Source: an uncultured archaeon
GTDB lineage: Archaea; Asgardarchaeota; Lokiarchaeia; Sigyniarchaeales; SOKP01
Assembly: GCA_964583985.1 (NCBI GenBank)
Contig: CAZOYD010000001.1
Span: 99,532 to 163,531, forward strand
Direction: 5' to 3'
Length of the DNA: 64,000 nt
This document shows, one piece after another, positions 156 through 49,414 of the stretch. A program made the translations under genes and the position numbers. Numbering within the stretch: the stretch's first letter is position 1; each line of letters starts with the position of its first letter. The notes under the pieces are model-generated. The model was not told the origin of the DNA. It ran no database searches and saw only the letters and a list, made by a program, of their open reading frames with translations.

Positions 156-2852
156 ATGTATACGATAAATCTATCATCGAAAGAGAAGATATCTGCGAAT
201 TTAGTGGGAACAAAAGCCGCTAATCTTATCTTTTTAAATCAAAAAGATTTTCCAATTCCTGACGGTTTTGTTTTAAATGTAAATGCATATAATGATTTTA
301 TTAAATTTAATAACCTAAATGTATTGATAAAGGACAATTTGATATCCTTTAATGGAAAAAATAATCAATCCATAAAATTTCAATCAGAAAAGATCATAGC
401 TGCTATTGAGGGTGGTAAATTACAGGATCTCCTAATTGATCAAATCAAGGCAAATATGGAAATTTTTAATAACAATCCAGTTGCAATTCGCTCATCAGGA
501 ACATTAGAGGATTTACCAAATTCTTCTTTTGCAGGTCAATACGATACATATCTCAACATTATAGGAATGGAACAGGTCCTTATTCATGTTAAGAAATGTT
601 TTGCTTCACTTTGGAGTGAACGGGCAATCACTTATCGATATAATAATAACCTACCCAATAAAGAACCAGAAATTGCGGTAATAATACAAAAGATGGTTCA
701 AGCTAATAGTTCTGGCATTCTATTTACAGCAAATCCGATAACAACAGATAAAACCGAATTAATTATTGAATCAAATTTTGGATTGGGAGAATCTGTTGTT
801 TCTGGACGAGTTAGCCCCGACCAGTTCATTATAAAACGATTAAGAAAAAATAAAGGATTTAGAATTATAAATAAAAAAATTGGCTTAAAAAGTCTTACGG
901 TTAACCCAATATTGAATGGAGTAGGTGTAGAATATAATAAAGCATCTGAAATTGAAAGTAATAGAGTTTCTCTTTCTGATCATTTAATTATTAAATTAGT
1001 TAAGTTAGGTATCGAACTAGAAAAAGCATTTTATAATAATCCTCAAGATATAGAATGGGTAATAGATAATCAATCCAATATCCATATTGTGCAATCTAGA
1101 CCAATTACTTCTTTTAGGCAAAAAAATGATGCTGAAGAGGTTTTATGGAGTAGGGGTTATTCTGATGACTATTGGAATGATAATACCACTCCTTTATTTT
1201 TTGATCTTTTGGGAAATCACCTAACAAAGATAGTAAACGTAGAATTAAATAGTATCATGGGTTATAGAAAGATGGATTTCCGATTGCTTAAATTATTCAA
1301 ATGTCATGTCTACTTTAATTTAAACGTTTTAAAAAACAAAGTAGAATATGAAATTCCTACTTTTATGCGATTTGAAGATGTATTGAATTACTTTCCAAAT
1401 GGATCTGGATCATATGGTAAGAAGACAATAAAAAAGCTTCCGTTTCATCTCAAGAATTATTTACTCGCTCAATTAAGGGTAAAATTTCATGATCCTAATG
1501 GAGCCATATCACGAACAGCAGAAGCATATGAAAGTTGGACAAAAGACGTATTTGATCCCTTTTTAAAAACTTTTGATATGAAGATGGAAGCAATAATAAA
1601 AAAAGGTGAAGAGATTTCTCTGCTGCGCTTAGTGGACGAGTTGGATGAAATAATGATTTCGCATTTTAGATTAGTCAGGTATGGTATCCCAGTACATAAC
1701 ATCGGCATGAATTTATTAACTCAATATCTACTCACTCGATTCTTAGGTAAAGAAGAGTGCCAAAATAATTTCCCAATCTTAATATCTGGTCTCGAGCATA
1801 AATTGACTCTAACAAATGAAAGCATCTTTGAAATGGTCTCTATAATTCTAGAATCTGAATATCTCAGAAATATCATTTTAAATAATAATTCAAGCTACAT
1901 CTATAGTATTTTAGAATCTGATTCTTCCCAAATCGCACGAGATTTTTTAAGGGTATTAAACAAATTTCTTGAGGAATATGGTGATAGAGGTTTTACTAGA
2001 GAAATGTATTACGCTCGATGGAGAGAATCCCCTGATTTAGTATTGGATATCTGTAAATCTTTAGTAAGAGATAAATGTAACTTCTCTGATAAATCACAAT
2101 TGAAAAATGAGAAGCGAAGAATGATACATAGAAGCATAGTTGAAACCAAAATTAAAAATCAAAAATTAGGTTTTATAAAATGGCTAATATTTTCGACAAT
2201 TTTGAAAAATAGTCGCAAATATATAATATTTAGAGAAAATCAACGATTTAACCTTGATAAGTGGATTACTAGAAATAGGAAAGTTTTTTTAGAGATTGCA
2301 AAAATATTAGTTGACAAAGAAATATTAAAAGAAGAGAGGGAAATATTTTTCTTTCATAAGTTCGAATTAGAAAATCTTGCGAATAATAAATACAAGATTT
2401 CTGAAATAGAAAATCTAAAAAAACTTATAAAGATAAGATTAGAGGAATTCGAGAAATATGAAAATCAAATTCCTCCTAAATTTATTTTTGGTTCAAGAGA
2501 ATATGATGATGAGTTTCCATTCACGCAAGAGAGTGAGACTTTACGAGGAACCCCTGCTAGTCATGGAATAATCACGGCTCCTGTACGTATTCTAAATGAA
2601 GTTAATGAGATCGAAAGCGTTCAATCGGGTGAAATAATAGTCGTTCCAAGAACAGATCCGGGTTGGACTCCAATATTTTCAAAAATTGGAGGATTAATCA
2701 CAGAAACGGGAGGAATTCTCTCACATGGTGCTGTTGTATCGAGAGAATATGGTATTCCAGCAGTGACTAATCTCATTAACGCCAGAAAACTAATAAAAAA
2801 TGGTCAACTAATTACATTGAATGGATATAATGGAGAAGTAATATTAAATTGA
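156..2852 (+). CDS. PEP-utilising enzyme, rifampicin phosphotransferase/PPDK-like (ATP-grasp + central domain + C-terminal swivel His domain)
   Basis: GTKAANL, AIRSSGTLED..SFAGQYDT, QDIEW..VQSRPIT in the N-terminal part; TDPGWTP..GGILSHGAVVSREYGIPAV phospho-His domain at the C-terminus. Confidence 0.85.
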   Translation: MYTINLSSKEKISANLVGTKAANLIFLNQKDFPIPDGFVLNVNAYNDFIKFNNLNVLIKDNLISFNGKNNQSIKFQSEKIIAAIEGGKLQDLLIDQIKANMEIFNNNPVAIRSSGTLEDLPNSSFAGQYDTYLNIIGMEQVLIHVKKCFASLWSERAITYRYNNNLPNKEPEIAVIIQKMVQANSSGILFTANPITTDKTELIIESNFGLGESVVSGRVSPDQFIIKRLRKNKGFRIINKKIGLKSLTVNPILNGVGVEYNKASEIESNRVSLSDHLIIKLVKLGIELEKAFYNNPQDIEWVIDNQSNIHIVQSRPITSFRQKNDAEEVLWSRGYSDDYWNDNTTPLFFDLLGNHLTKIVNVELNSIMGYRKMDFRLLKLFKCHVYFNLNVLKNKVEYEIPTFMRFEDVLNYFPNGSGSYGKKTIKKLPFHLKNYLLAQLRVKFHDPNGAISRTAEAYESWTKDVFDPFLKTFDMKMEAIIKKGEEISLLRLVDELDEIMISHFRLVRYGIPVHNIGMNLLTQYLLTRFLGKEECQNNFPILISGLEHKLTLTNESIFEMVSIILESEYLRNIILNNNSSYIYSILESDSSQIARDFLRVLNKFLEEYGDRGFTREMYYARWRESPDLVLDICKSLVRDKCNFSDKSQLKNEKRRMIHRSIVETKIKNQKLGFIKWLIFSTILKNSRKYIIFRENQRFNLDKWITRNRKVFLEIAKILVDKEILKEEREIFFFHKFELENLANNKYKISEIENLKKLIKIRLEEFEKYENQIPPKFIFGSREYDDEFPFTQESETLRGTPASHGIITAPVRILNEVNEIESVQSGEIIVVPRTDPGWTPIFSKIGGLITETGGILSHGAVVSREYGIPAVTNLINARKLIKNGQLITLNGYNGEVILN

Positions 2853-45589: not shown

Positions 45590-46054
45590 TTATTCTTGGT
45601 TACGTTTGGCAAATAATTGTTTTAGTTCACCCATTATTGCTCCCCTTAAACTTTGTGGATTTGCTGGTCGATTCCCTCCAGGTCCTCCAGGTAATGGGGG
45701 TGGTCCCCCGGGCGGTCCTCCGGGCGGTCCTCCGGGCGGTCCCCCGGGCGGTCTTCCGGGTGGTCCCCCTAATGGGGGAGGTGCACTACTTGGAGCGCTA
45801 GGTGCGGCTACAATTGGAGTAGAGAGCGCTGATTTAGCTTTTATATTAGATACTTCTGTATTTATGGTATTAATTCGTGATTCCATTGTTGTAATTTGCT
45901 GATTTATTGTTAATAGAGCTTGATCAACTAGATCTGGGATCCTTAGAAACATTGTCATCATTTTTTCCACAATATCTCCAAAAGCATTAATCTTTTCTTC
46001 AATCGGTGATTTACGAGCATTTTCTAAAAAGCTGGTAAACTCTTCTGCACACAT
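45590..46054 (-). CDS. Coiled-coil + polyproline (GGPP)n protein with C-terminal amphipathic helix
   Basis: 154 aa; PPPLGGPPGRPPGGPPGGPPGGPPGGPPPLPGG; SLRGAIMGELKQLFAKR. Confidence 0.85.
   Translation of the reverse strand: MCAEEFTSFLENARKSPIEEKINAFGDIVEKMMTMFLRIPDLVDQALLTINQQITTMESRINTINTEVSNIKAKSALSTPIVAAPSAPSSAPPPLGGPPGRPPGGPPGGPPGGPPGGPPPLPGGPGGNRPANPQSLRGAIMGELKQLFAKRNQE
45702..45770 (-). repeat. 12-nt GC-rich coding tandem repeat (GGPP)
   Basis: ccgggcggtcc(t/c) units on the + strand. Confidence 0.9.
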
Positions 46055-49028: not shown

Positions 49029-49155
49029 TTACAATCATTTGATCTAATGATAAGGTTAAAACTAAAAGGTATTAGTAATTGAAAAGTATTTTTTCCAATA
49101 AAGTTATATGCTCCAAATTAGAAAAATAAATAAAAAAAAATTATAAAAAAATAGA

Positions 49156-49308
49156 TTATTTATCTCCAAGAGCTTCTTTTATCTTCTCCAATTCTTCCAT
49201 GCGCTTCTTCTTTTCTTCCTCGCGTCGCTGCATTTCTTTTTCGTCTACTTTTTGGAGAGTAACGCCCTTTTTTATATCCTCTTTCAGTTCATTATCAATT
49301 GGGGTCAT
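49156..49308 (-). CDS. 50-aa WH2-like microprotein (not in ORF track)
   Basis: MTPIDNELKEDIKKGVTLQKVDEKEMQRREEEKKKRMEELEKIKEALGDK; GAGGT SD before the ATG; T-rich terminator-like tract downstream. Confidence 0.75.
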   Translation of the reverse strand: MTPIDNELKEDIKKGVTLQKVDEKEMQRREEEKKKRMEELEKIKEALGDK

Positions 49309-49414
49309 TATACCTCAGCATTCCTTATTTTAAATACTAATCTGAATTTGTAGCATTTATAGATACAGATATTATAATAGTTTTTATTTATAAGTTTAAG
49401 TTAATGATAAAAAG

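Follow-up and report, generated by a model that had tools for sequence, protein, structure and literature searches.

A 50-codon open reading frame on the minus strand of a Lokiarchaeial contig raises the question of whether it is a gene at all and, if so, whether its product handles actin monomers. The frame lies within the window, that is, the whole stretch of 64,000 nucleotides that was analysed. A reading made from the letters alone had claimed an ORF with its own Shine-Dalgarno (SD) motif and an E/K/R-rich tail, and had interpreted the product as a stand-alone WH2-like, thymosin-like binder of monomeric actin, and speculatively as a nucleator should its C-terminal helix oligomerise. The ORF, its SD and its tail were confirmed. 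Residues 7–22 read E-L-K-E-D-I-K-K-G-V-T-L-Q-K-V-D and the remainder is rich in glutamate, lysine and arginine. The features of the locus are as follows.

49156..49308, minus strand: coding sequence of the 50-aa protein, ATG start, 50 codons, TAA stop included (ORF list).
49243..49290, minus strand: WH2-like core, residues 7–22, comprising the end of the amphipathic helix 1, G15 and L18-Q-K-V21.
49270..49299, minus strand: predicted helix 1, residues 4–13, with a hydrophobic face formed by positions 4, 8 and 12 (AlphaFold2).
49162..49242, minus strand: long E/K/R-rich helix 2, residues 23–49, the most conserved part of the family (AlphaFold2 and alignments).
49312..49316, minus strand: SD-like GAGGT, with the ATG 3 nt further on (read from the sequence).
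49371..49394, minus strand: TATA-box-like element CTTATAAATAAAAACTATTATAAT, 24 nt, 63–86 nt upstream of the ATG (aligned related loci).
49125..49150, minus strand: oligo-T tracts immediately 3' of the stop codon (read from the sequence).

The TATA-like element at 49371..49394 is near-identical across nearly all aligned related loci of the whole family (same place in L002–L056) and is a putative promoter. The oligo-T tracts at 49125..49150 presumably act as an archaeal terminator-like signal. At the position equivalent to GAGGT, related loci carry GAGG/GGTG-like, purine-rich SD-like motifs before their start codons. Two small plus-strand ORFs overlap 49156..49308; their F/S-rich products merely mirror the K/E codons of the opposite strand, and no support was found for either. 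An Rfam search of the region matched no family.

A search of protein collections returned 59 near-full-length homologues of 49–51 aa with 68–100% identity. The gene had been called unannotated. This applies to the gene track, from which it is absent, but a few of the 59 homologues have entries in GenBank MAGs assigned to Lokiarchaeota or Promethearchaeota, where they are called hypothetical proteins. Six-frame searches matched the frame in 56 of 60 related genomes, all frames being open; these include 34 of the 35 genomes that belong to its genus. With a family profile, the small gene was found in 62 of the 67 genomes of its own family and in all seven of the sister family f2. Outside the order, 4 of 76 genomes of one family were matched by the profile, marginally and in the N-terminal motif alone; no other family among 300 Asgard genomes was matched. 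Within the genomes sampled, the protein family thus occurs in a single order of Lokiarchaeia. The proposed search across Asgard archaea was successful among the close relatives and, beyond this order, yielded no more than these marginal motif matches.

Where homologous genes align in register with that of the window, pN is ~0.12–0.13 and pS ~0.8–0.9, with synonymous sites saturated. Across family loci, the 50-aa protein retains 74–80% identity, compared with 60–66% for the adjacent Pelota and 42–48% for the GNAT acetyltransferase, and it is also better conserved than the syntenic radical SAM protein. The preserved open frames, a pN far below pS, the SD, the promoter-like element and the T-tracts indicate a real gene that is separately transcribed, translated and under strong purifying selection, as judged from the sequences. 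The frame is short and of low complexity, as would be expected if the AT-rich intergenic DNA at 49156..49308 held no gene and stayed open by chance. The conservation pattern refutes this explanation, leaving it a negligible probability: the frame stays open in relatives, its protein identity exceeds that of the flanking genes, substitutions are strongly biased to synonymous sites, and the SD and promoter-like element are conserved with it. An absence of conservation, which the sequence-only reading had named as fatal to its proposal, was not observed, and the stand-alone small protein of a Loki-type archaeon is genuine by its conservation across genomes.

The composition of the protein is unusual. 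Charged residues account for 29 of 50 positions, the net charge is ~−1 and about a quarter of the residues are hydrophobic; therefore, a globular fold is not expected. An AlphaFold2 model based on a 19-sequence alignment (me19a7361e5ad) has a helix at 4–13 (pLDDT ~66–67), a non-helical stretch at 14–22 and a second helix at 23–49 (pLDDT 84–92). The predicted topology is a helix, an extended L-x-K-V segment and a helix, without a globular core. Foldseek found no match to the model in the PDB, which is unsurprising for two helices, and an NCBIfam search with the protein yielded noise matches only.

In an alignment of 58 homologues (A1), E7, L8, I12, K14 and L18 are invariant, as are R29, E31, K33, K35, R36, E39, L40, K42, K44 and L47 in the second helix. 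Conservation reaches 90% or more at G15, V16, Q19, K20, V21 and D22. The best-conserved segment is R-E-E-E-K-K-K-R-M-E-E-L in helix 2. Some members have a proline at the fourth motif position, and members of family f2 lack G15. A broad alignment of stand-alone, tandem and fused modules (A4) has L18 and R36 as its sole nearly invariant columns.

The spacing L8-x3-I12-x2-G15-x2-L18-x-K20-V21 is that of the WH2 core and is invariant or nearly so in the 58 homologues. The WH2 hallmarks of hydrophobic residues at i and i+4, a turn and L-[KRQ]-[KR]-[VT] at fixed distances are all present in the 50-aa protein. At the level of prediction only, and with a pLDDT of ~66 for helix 1, the protein also shows the WH2 succession of a helix and an extended segment outside any globular fold. 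Architectures of actin regulators, i.e., tandem arrays and profilin-linked modules, occur among the relatives, but many other fusions are unrelated to actin.

Database searches gave a mixed picture of this resemblance. The single sequence had only two weak matches in the PDB, one of them the WH2 of WAVE1, in register. The family profile, searched against 177,635 PDB sequences, had as its best match an N-WASP tandem-WH2 construct, in register and with an E-value of 0.001 that sums over three near-identical engineered repeats; a single repeat has an E-value of ~20. Spire ranked fourth (0.24) and N-WASP fifth (0.26), both in register. An Alba chain was also matched, by chance. The proposed search with a WH2 HMM did not bear out the assignment: the 50-aa protein had no match to PF02205 at E ≤ 10. 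The gathering score of this model is 23.1 bits. A minority of relatives gave sub-threshold matches with best E-values of 0.03–0.3, namely 2 of 58 (best 0.059), 3 of 33 (0.033) and 2 of 9 tandem proteins (0.067); a member from genome G040 reached 13.1 bits. These scores are no better than those of unrelated noise families such as DUF3006. An identity as DUF3006 (PF11213) was itself rejected, since 13.6 bits and an E-value of 0.08 stand against a gathering score of 32.3 bits and the match covers the charged helix only.

For the Thymosin family PF01290, neither the 50-aa protein nor eight divergent relatives had a match at E ≤ 10. In a language-model feature search, the family's own clusters came first and the nearest named cluster was Thymosin PF01290 (0.87), which counts as no more than a lead. 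By eye, the small homologues of family f2 resemble thymosin beta-4; HMMER detected neither Thymosin nor WH2 in them. Of the thymosin-like description, the short stand-alone peptide holds, and membership in the beta-thymosin family is not supported by the profile. The WH2 reading keeps its exact spacing, with the key residues among the most conserved, but it misses the Pfam thresholds and has to accommodate a helix 2 that is alien to WH2.

The motif on its own is not significant: a shuffled proteome of this genome is expected to contain 4–10 matches to a strict WH2-type regular expression. A mini-profile of five WH2 cores, too small to discriminate, placed the 50-aa protein sixth among 47,501 six-frame ORFs (E = 13). 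Among the inspected hits of a profile search of 1.84 billion proteins, none was recognised as a eukaryotic WH2 protein, and one was a chance bacterial surface repeat that had the motif only. This repeat, the Alba chain and the shuffled-proteome matches show that such a motif may occur by chance. Since 300 Asgard genomes yielded the family in a single order of Lokiarchaeia, its homology with eukaryotic WH2 is doubtful.

Two further stretches with a similar appearance were noted. Helical proteins of 267–311 aa in family f12 (L062:1222-2022, plus strand; L063:1054-1986, plus strand) contain an internal near-consensus WH2-type stretch, …L-K-A-S-I-L-x-G-V-S-L-K-K-V…, which lacks helix 2 and is marginal (E ~1e-4). 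Pfam assigned no family to these proteins. In the window, 45590..46054 on the minus strand encodes a 154-aa protein with a long P/G-rich tract and the C-terminal helix S-L-R-G-A-I-M-G-E-L-K... By eye, this helix is like the longer helix 1 of the fused modules (L-R-x-S-I-M-x-E-L-K), but it scored −1.3 bits against the profile and was rejected as a module.

More information came from longer proteins. A single-sequence search found none at E ≤ 0.01, and fusions emerged only with profiles. The profile search of the genomes and 1.84 billion representative proteins returned only 91 proteins at E ≤ 0.001. Three groups stand out.

L022:1864-3327, minus strand (= G054:C1:4726363-4727826); L021:2312-3748, minus strand; L023 and L100–L104: tandem proteins of family f2.
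P0072, P0083 and P0068; L059:1301-2065, minus strand; L057:948-1790, plus strand: profilin followed by one, two or four modules and a C-terminal domain of ~55 aa.
P0092, P0102, P0120, P0144 and P0128; L058, L065 and L066: LRR with module and RHH or Zn ribbon; Ras/Roc GTPase with module and RHH.

The tandem proteins have 479–497 aa and consist of ~10 module copies, many of the form L-L-x-E-I-x-x-G/x-x-x-L-x-K-V/I. Family f2 includes closed genomes of 4.3–6.0 Mb. Its tandem-bearing genomes also encode a 55-aa single-module homologue (in G054, at C1:2869254-2869418), and both forms are present in cultured strains of this family. The exact sequence of the 488-aa tandem protein of G054 is absent from the protein collection searched. 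AlphaFold2 modelled a 488-aa tandem protein, from an alignment of nine rows only, as long helices connected by low-confidence loops of 9–10 residues that correspond to the L-x-K-V/I segments. The pTM was 0.20; therefore, the tandem protein is not globularly packed and does not form a packed solenoid. The tandem proteins are candidates for binding several monomers.

In the second group, the profilin domain of P0072 matched the solved Asgard profilins 5zza_P (E 1e-9), 7pbh_A (5e-8), 5yed (7.5e-7) and 5zzb (4e-6), and by sequence the domain qualifies as a bona fide Asgard profilin. The ~55-aa C-terminal domain of these fusions had no sequence relative in the PDB. Together with the tandem arrays, the profilin fusions tie the module to actin by context, and they are the strongest contextual argument for the actin reading.

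The inspected proteins included further architectures: RHH with module, module with a hexapeptide acetyltransferase and coiled-coil proteins with a module. No actin link is evident for the LRR, Ras/Roc GTPase, RHH, Zn-ribbon and acetyltransferase fusions. The module is a mobile element of Lokiarchaeial signalling-type proteins.

The genome of the window has only the stand-alone gene and a truncated RHH-type remnant. The latter, at L106:1501-1605 on the plus strand (= G000:C26:39433-39537), is a truncated RHH and module copy with a frame that opens after a stop. No ORF of at least 40 aa with an ATG, GTG or TTG start is listed there and the copy is probably a remnant. A 200-aa profilin-domain protein of the same genome (L107:1507-2109, plus strand, on G000:C19) carries a tail with a degenerate helix-G-x-G-L after the profilin fold and may be a decayed relative of the profilin-module fusions.

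The small gene is not syntenic with actin genes. Its neighbours are Pelota and the GNAT acetyltransferase, and the order radical SAM – GNAT – small ORF – Pelota – radical SAM was found in all of the ~40 family loci examined and in one genome of family f2. In family f4 (L025, L027), the small gene lies head to head with a gene for a MoxR-type AAA ATPase rather than with Pelota and GNAT. A VWA-domain gene is also beside it in G044 of the same family. In G052, it is located between CarS and a gene with a CCA-adding enzyme domain. The prevailing gene order could point to an accessory factor of translation or ribosome rescue, tied to Pelota and the RimI-like acetyltransferase. Such a role is very unlikely because the MoxR-AAA/VWA and CarS/CCA-adding neighbourhoods mark the synteny as lineage-specific and because the small gene has its own conserved promoter-like element, besides its terminator-like T-tracts. 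Furthermore, none of the fused forms contains a translation-related domain. Equally independent of actin would be a charged single-alpha-helix spacer, chaperone-like or associated with nucleic acids, which has no sequence-specific partner and in which the WH2-like stretch is a chance helix cap. The extreme E/K/R content, weak matches to charged helical families (DUF3006, the H-NS N-terminal domain and coiled coils), the RHH fusions and the chance occurrence of the motif in Alba and a bacterial surface repeat fit this description. It is nevertheless improbable: a net charge of ~−1 does not suit a basic nucleic-acid binder, and a mere spacer, in a gene whose synonymous sites are saturated, would not hold E7, L8, I12, K14 and L18 invariant.

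The alternative with more weight is a general short interaction module, composed of a linear motif and a single charged alpha-helix, with a partner other than actin. One candidate partner is a hub of Lokiarchaeial signalling proteins, for which the stand-alone form would be a competitor or regulator. This explanation accommodates the module in LRR, Ras/Roc GTPase, RHH, hexapeptide acetyltransferase and coiled-coil proteins, the missed Pfam thresholds of WH2 and Thymosin, and a conservation that is strongest in helix 2 and not in the WH2-like part. On the other hand, it turns the profilin fusions with one to four copies and the in-register WH2 matches into coincidence, and no result points to another partner. 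It is rather unlikely, yet helix 2 as the dominant element and the fusions to LRR, GTPase and RHH domains keep it live.

The preferred reading is that the 50-aa protein binds monomeric Lokiactin in the manner of WH2 or beta-thymosin. A probability of roughly 45% is assigned to it. The analysis shows the gene, its conservation, its motif, its predicted topology and the architectures of the module in relatives, whereas every step that involves actin is inferred. The genome has a candidate partner: its two Lokiactins, one of them encoded at G000:C1:25546-26688, match eukaryotic actin over the full length (E ~1e-160) and retain the acidic pair and the W-I-G-G-S-I-L segment. These segments are those contacted by WH2 peptides in published WH2-actin structures. 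The second Lokiactin gene is directly followed by the gene of a 423-aa protein (the pair lies at L110:85-1230 and 1465-2736, plus strand, = G000:C116); this protein starts with a profilin-like domain and continues into a long C-terminal extension.

In the proposed mechanism, helix 1 would bind to the hydrophobic cleft at the barbed face of Lokiactin. The L-x-K-V segment would follow the surface of actin, inserting L18 into a hydrophobic pocket and pointing K20 toward the acidic pair. Helix 2 may provide a second, family-specific contact or may be a spacer. The stand-alone protein would buffer or shuttle actin monomers, and the relatives with ~10 tandem copies or with one to four copies behind a profilin could collect or deliver several of them.

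Asgard actin regulators comprise profilins and gelsolins only, as far as the available parts of the literature on the subject describe them. The only WH2-like element reported in the Asgard actin literature, to the extent available, is the motif of the 2DGel gelsolins, and the available text on Asgard actin regulators names no filament nucleator. A literature search that linked thymosin with Lokiarchaeota found nothing relevant beyond arcadin-2. The module may represent a third class of actin regulators in Lokiarchaeia, a WH2/beta-thymosin-type monomer module that occurs as a sequestering peptide of 50–55 aa, a ~10-repeat protein and profilin-(module)1–4 fusions. This analogy is tentative, with the odds leaning against it. 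If it is true, the ~10-repeat protein could align monomers for a nucleation like that of Spire or Cobl, and the profilin fusions could hand on profilin-actin. The archaeal toolkit would gain monomer buffering and possibly nucleation. Eukaryotic WH2 motifs would then have their root in this archaeal module, or else the module would have reached the same solution independently; in either case it would bear directly on when WH2-based actin control arose.

Among known systems, arcadin-2 of Crenarchaeota is a small protein with a C-terminal helix that binds the actin homologue crenactin and has been likened to thymosin (PMC5173319). It has no sequence relation to the 50-aa protein and belongs to a different lineage and a different actin. 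The Asgard 2DGel gelsolins have a WH2-like motif of the L-K-K-T type (LVDV, LKDV, LRRV) between their two domains, which crystal structures place on actin (PMC9433394; bioRxiv 10.1101/2025.11.30.690169). This motif comprises four residues in a gelsolin linker without a preceding amphipathic helix, whereas the present family is an autonomous module.

Beta-thymosins (PF01290: thymosin beta-4, ciboulot, tetrathymosin) share the stand-alone size of ~45–50 aa and the topology of an N-terminal helix, an L-K-K-T/V-type segment and a C-terminal helix; single and tandem forms coexist in both. The C-terminal helix of the 50-aa protein is much longer, differs in sequence and starts two residues after the motif. 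WH2 domains (PF02205: WASP/N-WASP, WAVE, WIP, Spire, Cordon-bleu), which bind G-actin in the cleft between subdomains 1 and 3, have a second leucine at position 9, where the 50-aa protein has a lysine and its tandem-repeat relatives have L-L-x-x-I. The long conserved E/K/R helix after the motif has no counterpart in canonical WH2, and the 50-aa family is sub-threshold in Pfam and limited to one archaeal order. Common to both are the short amphipathic helix, the glycine turn and L-[K/R/Q]-K-[V/T], as well as the non-globular context and the single, tandem and profilin-associated occurrence. The motif spacing of the 50-aa protein is identical to that of N-WASP LLDQIREGAQLKKV and WAVE1 LLEAIRKGIQLRKV.
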